From Halogeometricum borinquense DSM 11551 (lineage in GTDB: Archaea; Halobacteriota; Halobacteria; Halobacteriales; Haloferacaceae), in contig NC_014735.1 in the NCBI RefSeq assembly GCF_000172995.2, positions 60,001 to 92,000 of the forward strand: a stretch of 32,000 nucleotides of DNA. The letters run 5' to 3'. A program made the translations under genes and the position numbers. Position 1 is the stretch's first letter, and each line of letters begins with the position of its first letter. This document shows positions 18,778-27,949 of the stretch, piece by piece. The notes beneath the pieces are model-generated. The model did not search any database, had not been told where the DNA came from, and saw nothing but the letters and a program-made list of their open reading frames with translations.

Positions 18778-19185
18778 ATGACCGTACATGGGATGATACC
18801 CATGGACTGGAACCGCCTCGGACCACGTGAAAAGGAACTGTTAGCAATCCTGCGACGGAGCGAACAGTCCTTGACTTCGCGGGAAGTCCAGCGTGAACTC
18901 CGAGAAGACGGCGTCGATGTCGTGTACTCGACAGTGAGTGCGACACTCGACCGCCTCGTCGAGAAGCGGTTAGTGGACCGAACCGAGGAGATGCAGCGTG
19001 GATCACCTCGATACCGACACACCTTCGCGGCCGACCAGTACGCCGGTGAACTCCTCGATTCGATCGTCGAGGACGTATCCGAAGTCCTCGGTACTGACGG
19101 CCTGACTGGACTGGTGCGAAGGGCCGAGGCGATGGGCGGGGATGAGCAATCGAACGAACACAACCCTACAAATACGAAAGCATGA
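18778..19185 (+). CDS. BlaI/MecI/CopY-family winged-helix transcriptional regulator
   Basis: LGPREKELLAILRRSEQSLTSREVQRELREDGVDVVYSTVSATLDRLVEKRLVDRTEE..GSPRYRHTF fits the Penicillinase_R pattern (..YSTV.T.L.RL..K.L..R....G....Y). It lacks the C-terminal CxCxxxxCxC of CopY. The start is ambiguous (ATG 18778, 18793 or 18802). The stop overlaps the halocyanin start (ATGA at 19182-19185). Confidence 0.7.
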   Translation: MTVHGMIPMDWNRLGPREKELLAILRRSEQSLTSREVQRELREDGVDVVYSTVSATLDRLVEKRLVDRTEEMQRGSPRYRHTFAADQYAGELLDSIVEDVSEVLGTDGLTGLVRRAEAMGGDEQSNEHNPTNTKA

Positions 19186-19697
19186 CAACGAAACTCGATA
19201 GGCGGAAGTTGATGAAGCAAATTGGAATCACTGGGACCGTAGCGCTGCTGGGTGGCGTCGCCGGATGTACCAGTAGCGCTGACTCAAGCGGTGATGGGGG
19301 TGCGGAGACTGAGGCGAAGACCGCGACATCCAAACCGAAGGACAGCTCGTCGGACGGTGAAAAGTGGACGAAAACCGACACCGTCGATATGAACGATGAA
19401 CTGAAATTCGCACCGAAGCGCATCAAAGTGGAGTCAGGAACGACTGTCACGTGGAAGAACGTCGGTGCAGTCGGCCACACCGTCACCGCCTATGAGGACG
19501 AGATACCCGACGGCGCGACGTACTTCGCGTCGGGTGGATTCGACTCCGAGAAAGCGGCGAAAGACGGCTATCCCGACAAGGGGAACGTGACAGAAGGAGG
19601 CACCTACGAGCACACGTTCGAGACCAAGGGAACGTACAAGTACTACTGTGTACCGCACGAGATGAACGCAATGGTCGGATACGTCAAGGTTATTTAA
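19182..19697 (+). CDS. halocyanin / plastocyanin-like type-1 blue copper protein, Tat lipoprotein
   Basis: Signal RRKLMKQIGITGTVALLGGVAGC (twin-Arg plus lipobox). Type-1 Cu ligands are GAVGHTV and YYCVPHEMNAMVG (C-x2-H-x4-M). Confidence 0.9.
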   Translation: MTTKLDRRKLMKQIGITGTVALLGGVAGCTSSADSSGDGGAETEAKTATSKPKDSSSDGEKWTKTDTVDMNDELKFAPKRIKVESGTTVTWKNVGAVGHTVTAYEDEIPDGATYFASGGFDSEKAAKDGYPDKGNVTEGGTYEHTFETKGTYKYYCVPHEMNAMVGYVKVI

Positions 19698-19698
19698 A

Positions 19699-21717
19699 AT
19701 GAGTTCACACGACACATCGGAGGGGGAGGAGACCGACACCAAAACAGAGCGTAGCGCAGAGACATTACTATCGGAACACGAGGCGCAGTTGAATGCGCTT
19801 ATTGCAGACGTACAGGGGCCGGACGCGGACCCAGTAGAGACGCAACTTCCGAATCTCGGTCTTGGTCTCGGTCGCCGGGACTTCATGAAAGCGGGGGCAG
19901 CCGTCGGGGTTCTGGGCTCCGTCGCCGGGTGTGCAGGGCAGGGCGACAGCCAGGGTGGTACAGCCACGCCGTCTTCGAGTCACGGCGATGTGCCCGACCA
20001 CTTCGTTCCGCCGGGCGAACACGACAAGTACTACGGCTTCTGGAGTGGCGGTCACTCCGGCGAAGTGAGAGTAATGGGAATTCCGTCGATGCGGGAACTC
20101 ACGCGAATCCCCGTGTTCAACAGGGAGTGCGCGAAGGGATACGGTTTCGACGACGGAACGGGGGAGATGCTTAAAGACGCAGGCGACTACACGTGGGGTG
20201 ACTCTCACCACCCGAGCTTATCCGAGACCGATGGGAAGTACGACGGCGAGTACCTATTCGTCAACGACAAAGCCAACGGCCGCGTCGCACGGGTGAATCT
20301 GAAGTACTTCGAGACGGATGCGATTCTGGACGTGCCGAACGTCCAGTCAGTCCACGGATGCTGCATTCAGAGCCCCGACACCGAGTACGTCTTCGCCAAC
20401 GGTGAGTTCCGTGCGCCGCTTCCAAACGACGGGCGCGACGTAGACGACCCGTCGAAGTACGTCTCGCTGTTTTCGGCCATCGACCCCGAAAGCATGGACG
20501 TACTCTGGCAGGTGAAAGTCAGCGGCAACCTCGACATCGCCGACTCCGACAAAGACGGCCGGTGGCTGCTCTCGTCGTCGTACAACGACGAAGAGGGGGT
20601 CGAAATCGAGGAGATGACCCGCGACGACCGCGACTCGGTGAAGGCGTTCGACGTACCAGCCATTCAGAAAGCGGTTGATGCCGGGAAGTACGAGGAGGTC
20701 AACGGCGTCCCCGTCGTCGATGGGACCCGTGAAAGTTCACTCAACAAGGGCGATAACCCACTCGTCCGCTACATCCCGACGCCGAAATCACCCCACTGCG
20801 TTGAGGTGACGCCGGACGGAAAGTACGGCATCGTCGCCGGAAAGCTCTCTCCGACCGTCTCGATCATCGATATCGAGAAACTCGGAACCGAACCCGACCC
20901 GGCGAAGACGATTGTCGGCCAGCCCAAACTCGGTCTCGGTCCACTGCACACTACGTACGACGACCGCGGTCACGGGTACACCTCGCTGTTCATCGACTCG
21001 CAGGTCGTCAAGTGGGATATCGAAAAGGCAGTGGAGTCACCAAAAGGCTCCGAGGAGGCCATTCTCGGGAAGATAGACGTCCACTACAACCCAGGACACA
21101 TCCAAGCGGTACAGGCAATGTCCGTCGAACCGACCGGCGATTGGCTCGTCGTCCTCAACAAACTGTCGAAGGACCGGTTCCTCCCAGTCGGACCGATTCA
21201 CCCCGACAACGACCAACTCATCTACATCGGAAACGACAAAGACAACGAAACCGGTGGAATGGAACTGGTTTCCGATCACCCCGTCTATCCCGAACCGCAC
21301 GACGCCATCATGGTCCACAAAGACAAGTTGGACCCGGCGAAGATATGGGATGCCAAGGACTACGAGGGAGAACGGGAGTACATCTCCGAGAAGAACTCGG
21401 GAATCGAACGCCTCGACGACTCGACCGTCGAGGTGAACATGAGTTCCAAGCGGAGCGAGTTCGGCCTCCGTGAATTCACGGTGAAAGAAGGCGACGAAGT
21501 GCAGATGACCGTGACGAACATCGAGAAGAGTCCGGACATCATCCACGGAGTTGCCATCCCCGAACACGACATCAACCTCGCGCTCGCCCCACAGGACACT
21601 CGGGAAGTAACGTTCGCCGCGGATGATCCCGGCGTCTACTGGATCTACTGCACGTACTTCTGTAGCGCACTGCACCTAGAGATGCGCTCGCGGATGATCG
21701 TCGAACCACGGGACTGA
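19699..21717 (+). CDS. nosZ: nitrous-oxide reductase
   Basis: 672 aa. Tat motif GRRDFMKAG (RR at residues 59-60) and lipobox VAGC (Cys78). CuZ-region WGDSHHPSLSETDGKYDGEYLFVNDKANGRVARV. CuA loop CTYFCSALHLEM (21649-21684). The gene starts 1 nt after the halocyanin stop. Confidence 0.97.
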   Translation: MSSHDTSEGEETDTKTERSAETLLSEHEAQLNALIADVQGPDADPVETQLPNLGLGLGRRDFMKAGAAVGVLGSVAGCAGQGDSQGGTATPSSSHGDVPDHFVPPGEHDKYYGFWSGGHSGEVRVMGIPSMRELTRIPVFNRECAKGYGFDDGTGEMLKDAGDYTWGDSHHPSLSETDGKYDGEYLFVNDKANGRVARVNLKYFETDAILDVPNVQSVHGCCIQSPDTEYVFANGEFRAPLPNDGRDVDDPSKYVSLFSAIDPESMDVLWQVKVSGNLDIADSDKDGRWLLSSSYNDEEGVEIEEMTRDDRDSVKAFDVPAIQKAVDAGKYEEVNGVPVVDGTRESSLNKGDNPLVRYIPTPKSPHCVEVTPDGKYGIVAGKLSPTVSIIDIEKLGTEPDPAKTIVGQPKLGLGPLHTTYDDRGHGYTSLFIDSQVVKWDIEKAVESPKGSEEAILGKIDVHYNPGHIQAVQAMSVEPTGDWLVVLNKLSKDRFLPVGPIHPDNDQLIYIGNDKDNETGGMELVSDHPVYPEPHDAIMVHKDKLDPAKIWDAKDYEGEREYISEKNSGIERLDDSTVEVNMSSKRSEFGLREFTVKEGDEVQMTVTNIEKSPDIIHGVAIPEHDINLALAPQDTREVTFAADDPGVYWIYCTYFCSALHLEMRSRMIVEPRD

Positions 21718-21723
21718 ACCATC

Positions 21724-22488
21724 ATGAATCTGCCAGGACGAACCGAGTTCGCCCAACTCCGCCGGTTGCTTCCGGTGGGAGCGGCAGTGCTGCTGCTCGG
21801 TGCACTGTTACTCCCGATGTGGTCCATCGAGATGCACGCCGTGCAGTATCCGAACGAACCGCTCCACCTCAGCCTGTACGCCTACCCACAGGTCAGCGGC
21901 GACTTCGTCGAGATCCATCGGCTGAACAAATACATCGGGTTCTACTATCCGGATCCTGTGTTCTGGCAGCCGAACTACGAACCGCACCCGCGGGCGATAG
22001 ACGTTCCGGAGTGGTCGCTCGGGCCACTAGCGTTCGTCGGGGTGGCTGCAACGAGTGTGTTCGTTGCGCTCGCGCCGACCGCCCGGAAACTCCGGCGTGG
22101 CCTCACACTCCAACTTGTCGGGGCCGTCGCGGTGTTCGCCGGTCTGCTGGCAGACATCCAGTTCCGACTGTATCAGGCAGGCCACACGCTGGATCCGGAT
22201 GCGCCTGTCATGGGCGTTGAGGGGTTCACACCGCCGCTTTTGGGAACCTATTCGGTTGCCAATATCACGAGTTACTCGCGGTTCGGTGCCGGTGCCTACC
22301 TGACGATGCTTGCTATCGGACTGCTGGTGGTTAGCTACGCGGTCCGCAATTCGACGGTCACGCTGTGGGAGGTCCCGGGATACGCCCGGAACCGATTCAC
22401 GGGCGACGACGAGACGACGGAACCGACAACCGGGACGACAAGCGAGCGAGCGTCCGCTCCGGACGCCTCCCGAACGGGGCGGCGGTAA
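21724..22488 (+). CDS. 4-TM integral membrane protein of unknown function, in the position nosB occupies in clade II clusters
   Basis: 254 aa with four hydrophobic helices (LLPVGAAVLLLGALLLPMW, LGPLAFVGVAATSVFVALAP, LQLVGAVAVFAGLLADI, AYLTMLAIGLLVVSYAV) and a large first extracytoplasmic loop. It starts 6 nt after the nosZ stop and ends 2 nt before the nosD start. Confidence 0.7.
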   Translation: MNLPGRTEFAQLRRLLPVGAAVLLLGALLLPMWSIEMHAVQYPNEPLHLSLYAYPQVSGDFVEIHRLNKYIGFYYPDPVFWQPNYEPHPRAIDVPEWSLGPLAFVGVAATSVFVALAPTARKLRRGLTLQLVGAVAVFAGLLADIQFRLYQAGHTLDPDAPVMGVEGFTPPLLGTYSVANITSYSRFGAGAYLTMLAIGLLVVSYAVRNSTVTLWEVPGYARNRFTGDDETTEPTTGTTSERASAPDASRTGRR

Positions 22489-22490
22489 CG

Positions 22491-23873
22491 ATGCCGTCTG
22501 TATCGGCCGAACGAGCGTTCGCCCTCTTCGCGGTCGTCGTTCTCCTCGGCACGACACTCTCAGCGCTGACGGTTCCGACGGCCGCAGGAGCGGATGACAG
22601 CCTCGCCTTCGAACCCGGTGTTCCGGAAGAGTACGCCTTCGACGCACCGACCGAAACGGGAACGGCGACCGTCGGCGGCGACTCCTACGAGTCGGTACAA
22701 GCGGCCGTCGATGCGGCCACGCCCGGAGACACCGTCCACATACGGGGGTCCTTCTCCGAGCGTGTTATCATCTCGACGCCGAACATCACACTCGAAAGCG
22801 CACCCGGTCGGTTGGCCCGTATCGACGGCGATGAGACGGAAGATGCACTCACGATAGACGCCGACGGCGTTACTGTCCGCCGAATCTGGATTCACAACTC
22901 CGGACGCGACACCGGAAGTAACGACGCCGGCATCTGGGTCAACGGCACGGACGCGCGCATACTCGACAGTCGTCTGACTGACGTCACCTTCGGTATCTGG
23001 GTGAACGGCGTTGACGACGTACTTCTGCGGAACAACACGATTGTCGGCCGCGAAGCGGTCCGGCCGTTATCCTATCGAGGAAACGGCATCCAACTCTGGA
23101 AAACGACAGATACCCGCGTCGTCGAAAACCGCATCACCGACGTTCGAGACGGGTTGTACTACTCGTGGGCGTCGAACGTAACCGCACGGGAGAACACGAT
23201 GTGGGAACTTCGATACGGCGTCCACTACATGTACTCGGACGACTGCCGGTTACAGAACAACACCTCGTTCGATAACGACGTCGGCTACGCGCTCATGCTC
23301 TCAGAGCACATTGAGGTCGTAGATAACGTCGCCGTGAACAACACCGGCGTGAGCGGACACGGGATTCTCCTCAAGCGGATCGACGACTCCGTCGTTCGGG
23401 GGAATCACTTCGTCGGCAACGACCGGGGCATCTACGTGCTGAACTCGGTCCGAAACGTGATGGCAAACAACCTCGTCATGGAGAACGGCATCGGCGTCCA
23501 TCTCACCGCCGGAACCGAAGACGAACGCGTCTTCGGGAATAGCTTCGTCAATAACGACCGGTCAGTGTTCGCGGTCACCGGCGAGTTGGCCGTCTGGAAC
23601 GCGTCCGAACGAGGTAACTACTGGTCGTCCGCCGACGCCGCCGACATCGACAACGACGGCATCAGCGACGTTCGCTACCGGCCGTCTGGACTGGTAGAGC
23701 ATCTGATCTACGAGCATCCACAGGCGGCGGTGTTCGCAGACAGCCCCGCATTCGACGCCATCCGCTTGGCTGAGAGTTCCTTCCCGGTCATCGAATCACC
23801 GGGAGTTGTCGATCACCACCCGCTCACGACACCACCACACAGCGACTGGAGACGATACTATGAACGCAATTGA
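22491..23873 (+). CDS. nosD: copper-enzyme maturation beta-helix protein NosD
   Basis: Signal MPSVSAERAFALFAVVVLLGTTLSALTVPTAAG, then many parallel beta-helix repeat units (N-x-I/V-x-x-N: LRNNTIVG, VENRITD, ARENTMW, LQNNTSF, VVDNVAVNN, VRGNHFVGN, MANNLVMEN, FGNSFVNN). The ATG at 22491 is preferred over the track start at 22365. Confidence 0.9.
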   Translation: MPSVSAERAFALFAVVVLLGTTLSALTVPTAAGADDSLAFEPGVPEEYAFDAPTETGTATVGGDSYESVQAAVDAATPGDTVHIRGSFSERVIISTPNITLESAPGRLARIDGDETEDALTIDADGVTVRRIWIHNSGRDTGSNDAGIWVNGTDARILDSRLTDVTFGIWVNGVDDVLLRNNTIVGREAVRPLSYRGNGIQLWKTTDTRVVENRITDVRDGLYYSWASNVTARENTMWELRYGVHYMYSDDCRLQNNTSFDNDVGYALMLSEHIEVVDNVAVNNTGVSGHGILLKRIDDSVVRGNHFVGNDRGIYVLNSVRNVMANNLVMENGIGVHLTAGTEDERVFGNSFVNNDRSVFAVTGELAVWNASERGNYWSSADAADIDNDGISDVRYRPSGLVEHLIYEHPQAAVFADSPAFDAIRLAESSFPVIESPGVVDHHPLTTPPHSDWRRYYERN

Positions 23874-24828
23874 CGTAACCGACGTAACGCAAACCTACGG
23901 CGACGTGACGGCTCTCGACGGCCTGTCACTATCCATCGAACCGGGGACTACCTTCGGTCTGCTCGGTACGAACGGTGCAGGAAAGTCTACGCTGTTCAAA
24001 CTGGTCGTCGGGCACGTCCGACCCGACACCGGCACGGTTTCGGTCGCCGGGCAGAACGTTGAGACAGCAGGCCCGGCCATCCGTAGCGAAGTCGGATACC
24101 TGCCCGAACACGCCGGATTCCCACCAGCGCTTACCGGCCGGGAGGTACTCGAATTTCACGCGAAGATGCGCGGGCTCGACGACGCGGACGACCGCATCGA
24201 AAGCGTTCTCAGTCTCGTCGGACTGCGTGACGCCGCCGACCGGCGAACCGGCGGGTACTCGAACGGAATGAATCGCCGTCTCGGATTGGCGACAGCGCTG
24301 CTTTCCCGACCGACGATTCTCCTGCTGGATGAACCCACTGCAGGCCTCGATCCACGAGGAGTCGCCGCGTTCCACGACGTCGTCGAACGACTAGCGCGGG
24401 ACGACGACCTCACGGTCGTCCTCTCCTCGCACGTGCTCTCGGAGGTCGAAAAGTTGTGTGATACGGTCGGCATCGTTCACAACGGGCGACTGCGTGCTGG
24501 CGGGTCGGTCGAAGCGTTGAAGCGAGACCTGATCGACGGCGTCCGAGTCCGCGTCCGTCTGGCCGACGCGGGGTCAATGGCCGACGCGACTTCAGTAGTC
24601 GATGAACACGACGGAGCCATTCGGTCCCAATCTAACCGCGAGTTCACCGTCGAATGCTCGTCGGAAGTCCCCCCCGGCCTGTTAGACGACCTGATGGACG
24701 CCGCGTCGCTGTCGGGGTACGAGGTTACCGAGCCGGGCCTCGAACAGGTCTTCGAGCACACTCTTGGCGGCGCGTCGAAGAAAGAGCAGGGAGAAGACGC
24801 GGAAGAGCAGGAGAGGGAGAAAACATGA
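23860..24828 (+). CDS. nosF: ABC ATPase NosF
   Basis: Walker A GTNGAGKST, signature YSNGMNRRLGLA, Walker B ILLLDEPTAGLD, H-loop SSHVL. Overlaps the nosD end by 14 nt. Acidic C-terminal tail KKEQGEDAEEQEREKT. Confidence 0.9.
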   Translation: MNAIDVTDVTQTYGDVTALDGLSLSIEPGTTFGLLGTNGAGKSTLFKLVVGHVRPDTGTVSVAGQNVETAGPAIRSEVGYLPEHAGFPPALTGREVLEFHAKMRGLDDADDRIESVLSLVGLRDAADRRTGGYSNGMNRRLGLATALLSRPTILLLDEPTAGLDPRGVAAFHDVVERLARDDDLTVVLSSHVLSEVEKLCDTVGIVHNGRLRAGGSVEALKRDLIDGVRVRVRLADAGSMADATSVVDEHDGAIRSQSNREFTVECSSEVPPGLLDDLMDAASLSGYEVTEPGLEQVFEHTLGGASKKEQGEDAEEQEREKT

Positions 24829-25775
24829 CCGAAGGACCTAACAGAGCGGATTCCGGTCGAAGCCACGAGACAGACGGTGGGGTCACAACGACCGGAGACG
24901 CTAACGTGACAGAACCAACCGATGTAGCGGAAGCACCAGAAGTGACGGAATCAACCGACGGGCAGGATAGCAGTGCGCTCCGACAGATTGCCACGGTCGC
25001 GGGCATGGAGTTCCGACTCTCGGTTCGGAATCGCTGGGCGGTTGCGCTGGCCGCGCTATTCACCCTCTTTGCGTCGCTCATCGTCGGCTTCGGCGCGTCG
25101 AGTGTCGGCCCGGTACGGGCGGATGCGGTCATCGTGAGTATGGCCTCGTTGGCAACGTATCTGCTCCCCCTCGCTGCGCTGGTCTTCGGCTTCGATGCAG
25201 TCGTGGGGGCCGAGGAACGCGGCTGGCTTGACATCGTGTTTGCACTCCCTGTCTCGCGTGCGCGAGTCGTCGTCGGGTCGTACCTCGGACGGGCGGTCAC
25301 GCTCGTGGCCGCGACGAGCATCGGCTTCGGAATCGGCGGGATTCTGCTGTTTTCGGTGGCATCGAGCGCTAACACCGTGTTGTACGCGACGTTCCTGCTC
25401 GGTTCAGTTGCGCTGGGACTGGGGTTCCTCGCAGTCGGCGTGTTCGTCTCGTCGGTCGTCGGTGAGAAGACCCACGCACTGGGGGCCGCACTCCTCGTCT
25501 GGGTCTGGTTCGTGTTCGGACACGACCTGCTCGCACTCGGTCTCGTGGCCGGGTCAAAACTCCCACAGAGCGCGTTATCGGTGATGGTCCTCTCGAATCC
25601 GGTGAGCGTCTTCCGAGTGTTCGTCCTCTCGGGTATCGACTCGACCGGCGGCGGACTGGCGACCGTCGTAGGGGAATCCACGCTCTCGATGCCACTTCTC
25701 GCAGTCGCGGCGACCGTCTGGGTCGTTGTCCCCGTCGCCGCCGCGGCGCGTGCTGTGCGCCATCGGAGCCTCTAG
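24825..25775 (+). CDS. nosY: ABC-2 permease NosY
   Basis: ATGA overlap with the nosF stop (24825-24828). About 6 hydrophobic helices follow an acidic N-terminal extension of roughly 60 aa. An alternative internal start at MEFRLSV is possible. Confidence 0.85.
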   Translation: MTEGPNRADSGRSHETDGGVTTTGDANVTEPTDVAEAPEVTESTDGQDSSALRQIATVAGMEFRLSVRNRWAVALAALFTLFASLIVGFGASSVGPVRADAVIVSMASLATYLLPLAALVFGFDAVVGAEERGWLDIVFALPVSRARVVVGSYLGRAVTLVAATSIGFGIGGILLFSVASSANTVLYATFLLGSVALGLGFLAVGVFVSSVVGEKTHALGAALLVWVWFVFGHDLLALGLVAGSKLPQSALSVMVLSNPVSVFRVFVLSGIDSTGGGLATVVGESTLSMPLLAVAATVWVVVPVAAAARAVRHRSL

Positions 25776-25905: not shown

Positions 25906-25939
25906 AGCCCAGAAAAGTGCGTCCCCGCGTGGAGACGGC

Positions 25940-27109
25940 TTAGTCGCTCTCGAAGTCAAGGTCGTCGTGCTCGACATCGAGGTCACCACCGTCGTGTTCG
26001 ATGTCGTGATCGTCGTCCTCGAACTCGGTTCTGTCGTCGTCGCTCTCGAAGTCGAAGTCGTCGGTCTCGACTTCGAGGCTGTCGCCGTCGTGCTCGATAT
26101 CGTGGTCGTCAGTTTCGACCTCGACGCGGCCGTCTCTGATCTCGATATCGATCCCGCCGGAGCCGTCGAACTCAAACTCGACGCGACCGTCGTCGCTGTC
26201 GAATTCGAGGTCGTCGCTTTCGACCTCGGCACGGTCGCCGTCACGTTCGATCTCGAAGTCGTCGCCTTCGACGTCAACGCGGTCGTCGTCGCTCTCGAAG
26301 TCGAGGTCGTCAGTTTCGACCTCCGCGCGGTCGTTATCCCGTTCCACCTCGATGTCGTCGAGTTCGATATCTACGTCGCGTCCACCGTCGAACACCACGT
26401 TACCGTTGTCATCAGTGTCGAGGGTGAACTCGAAGTCGCCGTCATCTCCCTCGACTTCGATGCGGTCGCCGTCGAATTCGACGTCGAAGTCGTCGCTCTC
26501 AAGATCGAGAGTCGATCCGTCGTACTCGAAGTCGAAGTCGTTCGTCTCGACCTCAATGTCACCATCGGCGTCGATCTCGACATCGAAGTCGTCAGTCTGG
26601 ATTTCGATCGTGTCGCCGTCGAATTCGATATCGAACTCGTCGCCCTCGATTTCGACCCTGTCGCCGTCGCTCTCGATGTCGAGGTTTTCGTTATCGCTCT
26701 CGACATCGTACTCGCCGTTTTTGCGTTCGATCTCGAAGTCATCACTGTCGACCTCGAGGTCGTTGCCGTTGTATTCGACATCGAGAGTGAGGCTGCCGCT
26801 ACGACCTTCGACCTCAATCTCGTTACCGTTAATCTCGACCTCGACGTCGTCACTCTCAAGGTCGATGCGGTCACCGTCTAGCTCGATATCGAAGTCGTCA
26901 CCCTCGATTTCGACGCGACCATCGGACCGAAACTCAATGTCGAAGTCGTCACCATCTAGCTCGACACGCTCATCACTAGTTTCCACATCGAAGTTGCTAG
27001 ACCGGTGGCTTGCTGCGACCGGTGCAACCATCACGGAGAGCACCATCACGAGTACCAGTATCGGTGCAAGTACTCTCGCTATGTTCCGCCGCCCGTATAT
27101 TTGAATCAT
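25940..27109 (-). CDS. secreted ultra-acidic tandem octapeptide-repeat protein, unknown family
   Basis: ATG start. Signal-like N-terminus MIQIYGRRNIARVLAPILVLVMVLSVMVAPVAAS. The remainder is about 40 units of a 5-residue alternating hydrophobic/acidic strand plus a 3-residue acidic turn (RVEIEGDD FDIEFDGD ...). The C-terminal units contain His. Confidence 0.75.
   Translation of the reverse strand: MIQIYGRRNIARVLAPILVLVMVLSVMVAPVAASHRSSNFDVETSDERVELDGDDFDIEFRSDGRVEIEGDDFDIELDGDRIDLESDDVEVEINGNEIEVEGRSGSLTLDVEYNGNDLEVDSDDFEIERKNGEYDVESDNENLDIESDGDRVEIEGDEFDIEFDGDTIEIQTDDFDVEIDADGDIEVETNDFDFEYDGSTLDLESDDFDVEFDGDRIEVEGDDGDFEFTLDTDDNGNVVFDGGRDVDIELDDIEVERDNDRAEVETDDLDFESDDDRVDVEGDDFEIERDGDRAEVESDDLEFDSDDGRVEFEFDGSGGIDIEIRDGRVEVETDDHDIEHDGDSLEVETDDFDFESDDDRTEFEDDDHDIEHDGGDLDVEHDDLDFESD
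25943..26998 (-). repeat. coding tandem repeat, roughly 24-bp unit / 48-bp super-unit
   Basis: Degenerate periodic GAC/GAG/GTC/TTC/ATC codon array (gtcgaagtcgtc-type words recur throughout). It keeps several frames open on both strands. Confidence 0.8.
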
Positions 27110-27352: not shown

Positions 27353-27949
27353 CTAGTCATCGAAATCGTCGTCGTCACGATCCGATTCGATGAGGATCCC
27401 GTTCGCGTCGTATACCCGGCGTACGTCGTCGCCGTCCTCGTCGTCTTTCTGGAACACCCGAAGCGTTCCGGTTTCGTCGTACCATCGCTCTCTCTCATCA
27501 CCGTCGTCGTCTTCGGTTCGCTGGAACCTGAGTGTCCCGTTCACGTCGTATATCCGTTCTTCCTCGTCGTCGTCTTCCTCTTCTTCTCGGTAGACCCGGA
27601 GTGTGCCGTTCCCGTCGTAGATCCACTCTTCTTCGTCGCCATCCTCCTCCTCTGTTCTACGGTAGCGCACTATCCCATTGCGGTCGAACTCCGTTCGCTC
27701 CTCGTCACCATCGTCATCAACTTCCTCGACGAATCCACCGTCGGGTCCGATACAGGACTCGAACTCCTCCCCGTCGGTAGTCTCATACTTGACGAATCGC
27801 CGGCATTTGTCGGTGGACCCGGCTCTATACTCGATGACGTCGTCAGGGCTATGAGTTGCCGTCGCGGCCTGTGGCAATACCGTGACCCCACCGACGAGAA
27901 CCCCAAGCGTACGGAGGCAGTCACGTCTAGTCGGGGAGAGATGACTCAT
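27353..27949 (-). CDS. Tat-exported acidic protein with five 23-24-aa YD-like repeats
   Basis: The internal ATG at 27949 gives MSHLSPTRRDCLRTLGVLVGGVTVLPQAATA (twin-Arg signal). Repeats: RTEFDRNGIVRYRRTEEEDGDEEE / WIYDGNGTLRVYREEEEDDDEEE / RIYDVNGTLRFQRTEDDDGDERE / RWYDETGTLRVFQKDDEDGDDVR / RVYDANGILIESDRDDDDFDD. Confidence 0.7.
   Translation of the reverse strand: MSHLSPTRRDCLRTLGVLVGGVTVLPQAATATHSPDDVIEYRAGSTDKCRRFVKYETTDGEEFESCIGPDGGFVEEVDDDGDEERTEFDRNGIVRYRRTEEEDGDEEEWIYDGNGTLRVYREEEEDDDEEERIYDVNGTLRFQRTEDDDGDERERWYDETGTLRVFQKDDEDGDDVRRVYDANGILIESDRDDDDFDD
27356..27697 (-). repeat. coding tandem repeat, roughly 69-72 bp unit, 5 copies
   Basis: DNA encoding residues 85-198 of the protein above. 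The periodic motif is Y-D-x-x-G-x-L-R plus a poly-D/E linker. Confidence 0.7.

Follow-up and report, generated by a model that had tools for sequence, protein, structure and literature searches.

A secreted hyperacidic repeat protein of Halogeometricum borinquense founds an unannotated haloarchaeal family with a predicted beta-hairpin architecture

The gene at positions 25940..27109 on the minus strand of the window (the 32,000-nt stretch of Halogeometricum borinquense DSM 11551 analysed here) is a complete coding sequence for a hyperacidic hairpin-repeat protein, and this protein founds a so far unannotated haloarchaeal family. It carries a signal peptide, its sequence recurs at lags of 7, 9 and 16 residues, and it follows a 32-residue family consensus, V-x-x-E-x-DD-x-x-IE-x-DGD-x-x-EVE-x-DD-x-DFE-x-D (alignments A1 and A2). 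As to what the protein does, we infer, with a probability of roughly 45%, that it is a secreted polyanionic beta-ribbon which associates with itself, binds cations and belongs to the cell envelope or matrix.

The initial annotation had read a 389-aa ORF from the minus strand, and the ORF listing confirmed it, with an ATG start and a stop codon at 25940-25942. An identical 389-aa protein was also called on Logan contig ERR481281_39. Long ORFs in three other frames overlap the gene (25967-26881 and 26352-27104 on the plus strand, 26371-26874 on the minus strand). Because GC3 did not tell the sense frame from the in-phase antisense frame, we used codon-position substitution counts against a metagenomic orthologue (L005, from a single-protein metagenome scan), which is 68% identical to the target, collinear with it unit by unit and different from it by whole-unit insertions and deletions. 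Differences at codon positions 1/2/3 numbered 71/50/134, a third-position excess in the sense frame, dN/dS was 0.20 at a dS of 1.1, and replacements were mainly hydrophobic-to-hydrophobic, acid-to-acid or small-to-acid. The gene is thus real and under purifying selection. Idiosyncratic units such as LDVEYNGNDLEVDSDDFEIERKNGEYDVESD keep their order between the two proteins; rapid decay of the repeats, which the initial annotation had named as the mark of an artefact, is not what this collinear orthologue and its dN/dS display. Directly after the stop codon, at 25920..25937 on the minus strand, the consensus scan and the sequence gave a terminator-like GC hairpin followed by a T-rich tail, although with three such sites found against 2.1 expected this is weak evidence for a terminator. 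The 32,000-nt window had no match in the plasmid collection, and a literature search by accession numbers and guessed locus tags found no mention of the gene.

Residues 1-34 (MIQIYGRRNIARVLAPILVLVMVLSVMVAPVAAS; 27008..27109, minus strand), as read from the sequence, form an N-terminal signal peptide that is probably cleaved after VAA or AAS. The L005 orthologue and fragment P0026 both keep its hydrophobic core and "...AASH" junction, in agreement with the secretion signal proposed earlier, and residues 11-33 were modelled by AlphaFold2 as a helix with pLDDT < 50. Export by Sec is likelier than by Tat, since the RR pair of the signal peptide is not conserved. Asp makes up 25.2% and Glu 15.7% of the whole protein; the mature part (residues 35-389, ~355 residues) contains 44.8% D+E and 5.6% K+R and has a net charge of about -138. 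For comparison, D+E amounts to 6-19% in neighbouring proteins of the window and to 26% in one small enzyme. The earlier estimate by eye that close to half of all residues are acidic was therefore near the mark for the mature protein (45%) and too high for the whole (41%). The protein contains a single Lys (0.3%), 4 Tyr, 8% Gly and no Cys, and its mature part has no Met and only 6 His. The C-terminus (...HDDLDFESD) shows neither a PGF-CTERM motif nor a transmembrane anchor; this ending and the absence of Cys rule out an archaeosortase substrate of the PGF-CTERM type and a lipobox lipoprotein.

Almost the entire mature chain is repetitive. The motif [DE]-hydrophobic-[DE/Q] occurs 69 times, compared with 19.3 ± 3.9 (maximum 35) in 2000 shuffles. 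Residue identity is 0.22 at lag 7, 0.25 at lag 9, 0.30 at lag 16 and 0.26 at lag 32, but only 0.11 at lag 8; lag 5 lies at background (0.077), and there is no peak at 18. The low value at lag 8 relative to lags 7, 9, 16 and 32 indicates that the unit is a 16-residue pair of non-equivalent halves, organized into a 32-residue super-unit. The hydrophobic phases of the two halves are offset by one residue, and the 32-residue four-strand unit is conserved across genera. Independently of any structural model, hydrophobic autocorrelation peaked at lags 9, 7, 16 and 2 in nearly all family members, and lag 8 was never among the top peaks in the members scanned. The initial description of about 40 eight-residue units was therefore right in its count (41 strands were predicted by AlphaFold2) but not in its period. 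Similarly, the 16-residue super-repeat that it proposed is recovered, whereas the Arg that it placed at each start begins, or immediately precedes, only ~12 of the ~21 hairpins. At the DNA level, tandem repeats with periods of 48 and 96 are 71-81% identical, which is too low for a recent expansion.

Two repeat blocks can be distinguished. The first (residues 40-232; 26414..26992, minus strand) comprises 23 strands predicted by AlphaFold2/DSSP (E40-E232), and the second (residues 246-389; 25943..26374, minus strand) comprises 18 strands predicted by AlphaFold2. The repeat is interrupted between them by an irregular Gly/Asn-rich segment, residues 233-245 (DDNGNVVFDGGRD; 26375..26413, minus strand). 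Residues 233-247 have pLDDT < 50, and whole repeat units are deleted in the L005 orthologue starting within and just past the segment, which may be a hinge between two halves. The second block ends in two 32-residue units with the motif DDHDIEHDG(D/G) (25943..26128, minus strand; unit alignments A1 and A2). This unit is the one best kept among Haloferax paralogues, where it reads DDH[DE]IE[QH] in the translated Haloferax mediterranei sequences.

Both AlphaFold2 models (full length and residues 246-389) were built without an alignment. They predicted 41 strands of six residues joined mostly by two-residue turns, with a mean pLDDT of 69 at full length and, in the separate run on residues 246-389, a mean pLDDT of 81.2 and a pTM of 0.55; the pTM of the models is only 0.42-0.55. 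In the predicted register, all 88 hydrophobic residues of the strands fall on one face, including 22/22 in the nine-strand run 66-138 and 20/20 in the nine-strand run 246-314. Within multi-strand blocks the hydrophobic face is 73% hydrophobic and 1% acidic, and the opposite face is 81% D/E, 11% R/K and 0% hydrophobic. The acidic face holds 58 Glu and 37 Asp in strands, and the turns are dominated by Asp, Gly and Asn; this division of Glu to strands and Asp, Gly and Asn to turns fits selection for hairpin formation. Hairpins with two-residue turns require just such a 7/9/16 hydrophobic periodicity if they are to share a single hydrophobic face. The prediction is thus of a hairpin ribbon with two opposite faces. 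It supports the initial reading of a signal ahead of strand-turn repeats in which one face consists of carboxylates only and, together with the same periodicity, agrees with the beta-meander that was one of the folds suggested there. No convincing analogue was found by Foldseek (TM <= 0.56, and no E < 1e-3 for fragment 246-389). The neighbours were antiparallel sheets (OspA, WD40 blades, the teneurin YD shell and the CPAP TCP10 domain), with OspA 2ol8 (probability 1.00, TMq 0.37) and TCP10 4bxr (probability 1.00) at the top by probability. The only match in a sequence search of solved structures was a hairpin of ribosomal protein L6, at an E of 0.77.

Relatives of the protein were detected in Haloferax, Natrinema, Halomarina and Haloarculaceae, often as clusters of paralogues, and all those with a database entry are named "hypothetical protein". 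Profile A2, built from 64-residue double units of two Haloferax mediterranei and four Natrinema proteins, gave E-values of 1e-36 to 1e-95 on its own source sequences (database size set to 5.8 billion). Outside its build it scored 6e-41 on the L005 orthologue, 3e-18 on a third H. mediterranei protein, 2e-35 on the Haloarculaceae protein and about 1e-13 to 1e-19 on two from Halomarina; over most relatives (four further genera and the metagenome) the range was 1e-17 to 1e-95, with weaker scores for the most distant. Most A2-matched relatives have signal peptides, mostly of Sec type. Family neighbourhoods include secreted or surface proteins (a BGTF surface protein, S8 proteases and DUF4397), and no conserved functional partner was found in those examined. 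As the initial annotation had it, the protein belongs to no recognised family: Pfam, NCBIfam and PDB gave no consistent match across the target and its relatives. A word-indexed homology search with the target, A2 and an H. mediterranei paralogue returned zero matches and missed even the query's own entry; since A2 scores the members locally, we attribute this to a candidate-selection step that fails on low-complexity words and not to absence. A metagenome scan with profile A3 confirmed no relative.

The gene lies 165 bp past the end of nosY and is convergent with it, as the initial annotation had observed for the end of the nos operon. That annotation had also noted that nosL is missing from the window, and tblastn with the Haloferax mediterranei NosL agreed, with a best E in the window of 0.97, outside the target gene. 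The target itself is not NosL, given this location of the best match and the lack of a NosL profile match. In H. mediterranei and H. gibbonsii, nosL directly follows nosY, and the syntenic nos clusters of H. mediterranei, H. gibbonsii and H. larsenii (L010-L012) have no family member by the A2 profile. Five further loci with family members are not close to nos genes: no nos genes occur within 3-4 kb either side of the L005 orthologue, the three H. mediterranei paralogues, HFX_RS18815, HFX_RS18810 and HFX_RS18800, are on plasmid pHM500 with nos on pHM300, and the paralogue clusters of Natrinema, Halomarina and Haloarculaceae are not near nos. The speculative copper link of the initial annotation finds no backing in these loci, the position of the gene beside nos looks coincidental, and nos-operon adjacency should not be read as function. 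The adjacent gene, previously called YD-like, encodes a separate Tat-exported acidic repeat protein with a sub-threshold MORN_2 match only.

In the explanation that we favour, the target would be a secreted, non-enzymatic structural protein. After export and removal of the signal peptide, the ~355-residue chain would fold into ~21 consecutive 16-residue beta-hairpins, with strands of ~6 residues and two-residue turns that are mostly DD, GD, GN or ND. The hairpins would line up as a long antiparallel ribbon, one face of which would be a continuous V/I/L/F stripe and the other a lattice of ~95 carboxylates with scattered Arg, with ~60 more Asp in and around the turns. Since so large an exposed hydrophobic face could not persist in brine, it is presumably buried where two such faces pair; the partners might be the two halves flanking hinge 233-245, two chains or longer stacks, and the outside of the particle or fibre so formed would be carboxylate throughout. 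Such a carboxylate surface needs counter-ions to fold, so binding of Mg2+, Ca2+ and Na+ would be expected to have high capacity and low selectivity. Within the envelope or extracellular matrix of haloarchaea, the product would serve as a hydrated polyanionic layer or scaffold.

It is conceivable, though doubtful, that the two-faced (Janus) ribbon goes further, its hydrophobic faces zipping together, perhaps on a cation trigger outside the cell, into carboxylate-coated fibres or gels that could be the amyloid-staining protein component of the haloarchaeal biofilm matrix or a template for Mg2+ or Ca2+. For the template option, the picture is one of Mg2+ or Ca2+ concentrated and dehydrated at the cell surface. 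The biofilm matrix of Haloferax volcanii stains with Congo red and thioflavin T, with HVO_1403 as a candidate gene only and none confirmed (PMC4180959). If true, a zipped ribbon of this kind would represent a functional polyanionic beta-assembly of a new class, with the designed (Phe-Asp)n materials as its synthetic counterpart.

Less likely than such zipping, in our estimate, is a cation-dependent parallel beta-solenoid similar to a beta-roll. Each 16-residue coil would contain two 5-residue strands with hydrophobics inward, and Ca2+ or Mg2+ would be chelated by the DGD and (G/S/T)DD arcs in the manner of RTX rolls and the Marinomonas antifreeze adhesin. Folding would have to wait for export, and the folded chain would act as a rigid acidic rod or adhesin. 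Periods of 16 and 32 residues and turns rich in Gly, Asp and Asn would suit this fold, as would the mostly Sec-type signal peptides of the family, which imply folding outside the cell; antifreeze solenoids with coils as short as 12-19 residues exist. However, both AlphaFold2 runs gave antiparallel hairpins with two-residue turns, the Foldseek neighbours are antiparallel, with weakly scoring phage spike proteins as the only helical-type matches, and there is no RTX Pfam match. Furthermore, the non-alternating segment of 2-3 residues is very short for a 180-degree arc, and Arg at unit position 1 would have to stack on Arg in a solenoid, whereas the hairpin register pairs it with Asp. An interfacial protein, which we hold to be less probable again, would lay its hydrophobic face on lipid, on hydrocarbon or polymer droplets or on the air-brine interface and turn its carboxylates toward the brine, and would act as a surfactant or coat much like the amphipathic beta-belt of apolipoprotein B around lipid. 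Hydrophobic and acidic residues are indeed perfectly segregated onto opposite faces, and the protein has no anchor and no conserved protein partner. ApoB100 does appear as a weak Foldseek neighbour of the full-length model, but the similarity is generic (TM about 0.13), the gene neighbourhoods contain no pointer to lipid or hydrocarbon metabolism, and self-pairing of two faces is a simpler form of burial.

Further down the scale, the carboxylate lattice could match the faces of Ca/Mg carbonate, gypsum or other evaporite crystals and nucleate or inhibit their growth. This recalls the classical idea of (Asp-X)n matrix proteins in mollusc shells. A regular two-dimensional carboxylate array does follow from the hairpin register, and designed (Phe-Asp)n sheets template calcium phosphate (PMC9078708). 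No conserved neighbours are tied to carbonate or sulphate chemistry, however, and the mineral reading overlaps our preferred one, since cation binding by the acidic face underlies both. A copper or metal accessory of nitrous-oxide reductase maturation, perhaps in place of the missing NosL, would account for the gene 165 bp beyond nosY in a window that lacks NosL and for two HDIEH motifs near the C-terminus. We consider it highly improbable: the gene converges on nosY and is followed by a terminator-like hairpin of its own, the three syntenic Haloferax nos clusters have no member, L005 and other members are not near nos, Cys and Met are both missing from the mature protein, and the Natrinema members do not keep its His positions. 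Least probable of all, and already largely refuted, is a non-functional, low-complexity GAC/GAG-rich repeat that is open in several frames by chance. The overlapping long ORFs in three other frames and the non-discriminating GC3 would be expected of such a sequence, but the Asp/Glu frame alone is open end to end and has a signal peptide in every species seen. The dN/dS of 0.20, the third-position excess and the conservative replacements also speak against it, as do the like order of idiosyncratic units in orthologues and DNA repeats that are only 71-81% identical.

If the structural prediction holds, the 16-residue unit of the target, made up of six-residue strands and two-residue turns, would rank as roughly the shortest known regular beta-hairpin repeat, and the protein would combine full separation of polar and non-polar residues between its faces with a net charge near -138. 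The family is an unannotated, multi-copy secreted family in Halobacteria that could bear on extracellular divalent cations, hydration and matrix formation. Its biology is testable, because Haloferax mediterranei has three paralogues and is genetically tractable. We also note that word-indexed homology searches and several Pfam models perform poorly on hyperacidic repeat sequences of this type.

Comparison with known families and systems places the protein apart from each of them. We defined RTX by GGxGxDxUx nonapeptides in an 18-residue coil, pentapeptide repeats by a period-5 A(D/N)LXX motif that builds a quadrilateral beta-helix and YD repeats by a consensus of ~20 residues that contains the YD dipeptide, and the exclusion of these three in the initial annotation, like that of PGF-CTERM, stands, with no Pfam match at E <= 1. 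RTX/HemolysinCabind (PF00353) is further excluded by the missing lag-18 peak and a Gly content of 8%, the pentapeptide repeat (PF00805) by the lag-5 identity of 0.077, and RHS/YD (PF05593) by the presence of only 4 Tyr, the likeness to the teneurin YD shell being generic (TMq 0.18). Three other Pfam models were exceeded just above their cut-offs: Sarcoglycan_1 (PF04790; 34.1 bits against 32.5, 57/259 model positions covered), YabP (PF07873; 28.4 against 27, 32/64 positions) and Glyco_hydro_65C (PF03633; 23.9 against 22, 31/62 positions). We regard all three as spurious. The Sarcoglycan_1 match is missing from the 68%-identical orthologue and from 13/13 other relatives scanned, and YabP reaches 19.7 bits in the orthologue. 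For Glyco_hydro_65C, the orthologue (33.4 bits) and one Haloferax paralogue (24.0 bits) also exceed the cut-off as a whole-protein sum, but no single matched stretch is significant and the match is absent from most relatives. The "Toastrack" families DUF4097, DUF2807 and LiaG resemble the target in their short "v.v.t.sGdi.v" strand-turn repeats, although its matches of this type fall far short of the curated cut-offs and do not recur across the family. DUF2807 scored 12.9 bits (cut-off 24.2) and LiaG 19.7 (cut-off 285), with no match in most relatives, and both were rejected. DUF4097 scored 19.7 bits in relative P0101, a match that is pattern-driven, since AHNAK-type proteins match DUF4097 too. 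A haloarchaeal protease-precursor system described in the literature is unrelated to the target; its precursor is alpha-helical.

An exhaustive phmmer search with the target returned mostly AHNAK-like vertebrate proteins. The central repeats of AHNAK and AHNAK2 are its strongest sequence matches (E 1e-88 to 1e-10, many stretches per protein) and likewise consist of short alternating hydrophobic/charged strands joined by turns, for which a linked antiparallel arrangement is predicted but unproven (PMC8833689). However, AHNAK2 repeats are ~165 residues long (PMC8833689) compared with 16 and 32 in the target, the identity is 20-25% with the shared pattern behind it, and Lys makes up 12-15% of the AHNAK-type matches against 0.3% here. 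AHNAK proteins are also eukaryotic and intracellular, several with an N-terminal PDZ domain; the target is archaeal, with 1 Lys and no PDZ domain, and does not belong among them. We read the sequence likeness as convergence, not homology.

The central sheet of OspA, the CPAP TCP10/G-box and MORN ribbons are, like the predicted fold, consecutive beta-hairpins in an extended ribbon, and both the DSSP pattern and the Foldseek neighbours (TM <= 0.56) fit this single-layer beta-sheet class. They differ in having no sequence homology to the target, low TM-scores, longer strands or repeats (MORN repeats have about 23 residues) and faces that are both polar or mixed, whereas the target hairpin would have 16 residues with a purely hydrophobic face opposite a purely acidic one. 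A face made up of hydrophobic residues only speaks for a second layer. The RTX beta-roll is also a secreted, acidic, short tandem repeat with Gly and Asp in its turns, and the target plausibly shares its dependence on cations for folding. The RTX period is 9/18 and not 8/16, it is a parallel roll and not a run of predicted antiparallel hairpins, and the target lacks both the type I secretion context and a HemolysinCabind match (E <= 1). Designed anionic beta-sheet peptides, of which the target would be approximately a natural version if the prediction holds, alternate Phe or aliphatic residues with Asp or Glu and so present one hydrophobic and one carboxylate face. The designed (Phe-Asp)n peptides self-assemble into hydrogels, adsorb Ca2+ and phosphate and template calcium phosphate (PMC9078708). 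These are synthetic 13-mers that assemble between molecules, whereas the haloarchaeal protein would join ~41 strands within a single natural, exported chain that has its own turns and Arg at salt-bridge positions.

The target gene, an ORF of 389 codons with an ATG start, lies at window positions 25940-27109 on the minus strand. Asp and Glu account for 25.2% and 15.7% of its product, and past the signal-like N-terminus Asp+Glu reach 44.8% with 5.6% Lys+Arg. The computed net charge is about -138; Cys, Trp, Pro and Met are absent and there is a single Lys, while the mature protein (no Cys or Met) has six His. This acidity is extreme even among halophile proteins, as other proteins of the window contain 6–19% Asp+Glu, with the exception of one small enzyme (26%). 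The initial annotation had described about 40 eight-residue acidic strand-turn repeats. The acidic alternation was borne out, with 69 acid-hydrophobic-acid triplets compared with 19.3 ± 3.9 in shuffled sequences, but the unit that repeats spans 16 residues rather than 8. Specifically, residue identity was 0.22, 0.11, 0.25, 0.30 and 0.26 at lags 7, 8, 9, 16 and 32, and hydrophobic positions showed a 9/7/16/2 autocorrelation signature in nearly all family members. High values at these lags and a low value at lag 8 therefore indicate two alternating, non-equivalent 8-residue halves, F-D-I-E-F-D (hydrophobic at positions 1, 3 and 5) and R-V-E-V-E-G (positions 2 and 4). For the hydrophobic residues of both strands to share a face, an antiparallel hairpin with two-residue turns needs just such a shift by one residue. 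Arg occurs at or just before the start of ~12 of the ~21 hairpins.

AlphaFold2, run without an alignment on the full-length target, predicted 41 strands of about six residues, mostly joined by two-residue turns (DD, n = 13; GD, n = 5; also GN, ND, DG and NG), with a mean pLDDT of 69, a pTM of 0.42 and a low-confidence break at residues 233–247; residues 246–389 alone gave a pLDDT of 81 and a pTM of 0.55. When side-chain orientation was propagated along every strand run joined by two-residue turns, including two nine-strand runs, all 88/88 hydrophobic strand residues fell on one face (73% hydrophobic, 1% acidic), and the opposite face had no hydrophobic residues (0%) and consisted of 81% Asp/Glu and 11% Arg/Lys. 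The earlier reading of amphipathic strands with a carboxylate face is thus largely supported by the model, in which the target is predicted to be a long two-faced antiparallel ribbon (a 'Janus' sheet). Glu is favoured inside predicted strands and Asp, Gly and Asn in turns, consistent with selection of the sequence for forming hairpins. In the PDB, Foldseek retrieved nothing beyond low-TM matches to antiparallel sheets of a generic kind (WD40 blades, the teneurin YD shell, the CPAP TCP10 domain, OspA, axonemal ribbons and ApoB100).

The repeat region is also open in three further frames, with ORFs at 25967-26881 (+), 26352-27104 (+) and 26371-26874 (-) whose products (304, 250 and 167 aa) are rich in Val/Leu, Ser and Thr/Ser/Arg, respectively. 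These ORFs are by-products of GAC/GAG-rich sequence, and the set of open alternative frames varies from species to species. GC3 did not discriminate among the open frames; nonetheless, four lines of evidence favour the minus-strand Asp/Glu frame as the coding frame. A metagenomic orthologue (322 aa) aligned collinearly with the target (218/322 residues identical), with indels of whole units and idiosyncratic units such as LDVEYNGxDLEVDSDDFxIERxNGEYDVESD retained, a result that speaks against a low-complexity artefact. The pair showed a dN/dS of 0.20 (dS ~1.1), and replacements were overwhelmingly hydrophobic-to-hydrophobic, acid-to-acid or small-to-acid. Differences by codon position in the sense frame were 71/50/134; the in-phase antisense frame is disfavoured because coding there would require an excess at its own first position. 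In every species seen, the Asp/Glu frame alone starts with a signal peptide. On the minus strand, the stop codon is immediately followed by a GC hairpin and its T-rich tail, which is weak evidence. Gene calling on an independent assembly (Logan ERR481281) recovered the gene as well. Tandem DNA repeats with periods of 48 and 96 nt were only 71–81% identical, which makes this an old, diverged array and not a recent expansion.

With regard to relatives, family members were found in Natrinema salsiterrestre (four tandem genes and one further, 4 kb off), Haloferax mediterranei pHM500 (WP_049917531.1, WP_004060675.1 and WP_004060677.1, on either side of a BGTF surface protein), Halomarina pelagica (WP_254546313.1 and a second copy), Haloarculaceae isolates (two copies), Haloferax sp. 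Atlit-24N (a fragment, 69% identity) and metagenomes. A 32-residue four-strand unit (V-x-x-E-x-DD-x-x-IE-x-DGD-x-x-EVE-x-DD-x-DFE-x-D) is conserved in Halogeometricum, Haloferax, Natrinema and Halomarina. Its profile scored E values of 1e-36 to 1e-95 on its own seed members (hmmsearch, database size set to 5.8 billion) and 1e-17 to 1e-41 on proteins outside the seed. A word-indexed protein search found zero family matches and missed even the query's own database entry; because local hmmsearch with the same profile gives 1e-36 to 1e-95, an empty result from such a search does not indicate that low-complexity repeat proteins are absent. Together, these results show that the hyperacidic hairpin-repeat proteins form a conserved, exported family.

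Recurrent neighbours of family members were exported or surface proteins and regulators, including the BGTF surface protein, S8 proteases (two loci), DUF4397 proteins (two loci), and BAT/HTH_10 and PAS regulators. Local paralogue clusters occur in pHM500 (L003, 7686-14655; three paralogues around the BGTF-domain protein) and Natrinema salsiterrestre (L002, 7194-16130; four tandem and one nearby). A non-repeat acidic tail at the C-terminus, VGAFLDDLTR(S/D)EIIELGT..., is common to the two long Haloferax paralogues and missing from the target. In Halomarina pelagica (L004, 6178-9975) and a Haloarculaceae archaeon (L007, 6001-12331), a gene for a secreted S8 protease lies between two family members, with BAT/HTH_10 regulators close by; a DUF4397 protein is encoded in one of these loci and in the Natrinema locus. 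This arrangement may be a recurring secreted-protein neighbourhood or else reflect shared ancestry. Directly upstream of the target, on the same strand (27353-27949, -), a 198-aa protein has an evident twin-arginine signal (SPTRRDCLRTLG), is 33% Asp+Glu and contains about five ~25-residue repeats, (R/W)xYDxNGTLRV(Y/F)(R/Q), with Asp/Glu runs between them. Its only Pfam match was sub-threshold (MORN_2, 18.6 bits; cut-off, 29.6), and it was not detected by the family profile, which was built from 64-residue double units. From its sequence it appears to be a second secreted acidic hairpin-repeat protein, probably on a separate transcript given the T-rich tract after its stop codon.

The function of the target and its family can only be inferred. 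The hydrophobic face could be buried by pairing of the two halves across a 233–245 hinge, of two chains, or in stacks, and the product would be a carboxylate-coated assembly that needs and holds counter-ions. Such an assembly may bind cations at high capacity and form a hydrated polyanionic part of the envelope or extracellular matrix. Amyloid-staining material, its protein not yet confirmed, has been reported in the Haloferax volcanii biofilm matrix (PMC4180959). A cation-dependent parallel solenoid ranks first among the alternatives, albeit as an unlikely one. An interfacial coat protein is ranked next and appears doubtful, followed by a binder of mineral faces, which we consider improbable.

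A nos accessory protein is a far more remote alternative. The target is convergent with nosY. On its plus strand the window carries nosZ, nosD, nosF and nosY together with the gene of a copper protein of the plastocyanin/azurin family and a conserved membrane ORF of 254 aa, and the window NosZ is identical to ADQ68580.1 of Halogeometricum borinquense DSM 11551. As initially noted, NosL is not encoded anywhere in the 32-kb window, and the nos cluster (19182-25775) terminates at nosY. In Haloferax mediterranei and H. gibbonsii nosL directly follows nosY, and H. larsenii lacks it there; beyond nosY, these three syntenic clusters carry nosL (2/3) or unrelated genes. The copper link, offered earlier as speculation, found no support because the three Haloferax nos clusters contain no family member, the metagenomic orthologue and the paralogue clusters of other genera lie away from nos, the mature target protein lacks Cys and Met, and its six His sit in C-terminal motifs absent from Natrinema members. 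The 254-aa predicted membrane protein (21724-22488, +), between nosZ and nosD, has no Pfam match; its Haloferax mediterranei counterpart holds the same position (62% identity, E 4e-111), as do similarly sized hypothetical genes in H. gibbonsii and H. larsenii, and it looks like an uncharacterised haloarchaeal nos-cluster component. An artefact is the least probable of the alternatives, since the frame is conserved in the collinear orthologue.

This haloarchaeal family is unannotated: its database entries are nameless or labelled 'hypothetical protein', and no member had a reproducible Pfam or NCBIfam match, in agreement with the initial annotation. The target fell outside each of the following: RTX, pentapeptide and RHS/YD repeats, DUF4097, DUF2807, LiaG, Sarcoglycan_1, YabP, GH65C, AHNAK, PGF-CTERM substrates and NosL. 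The repeat design is unusually minimal and extreme. The strongest sequence matches, with E values as low as 1e-88, were giant vertebrate proteins of the AHNAK type, but these are only 20–25% identical to the target, Lys-rich, PDZ-bearing and intracellular. AHNAK-type repeats are also thought to form linked antiparallel strands (PMC8833689), and we read the likeness as convergence on a common strand-turn pattern.
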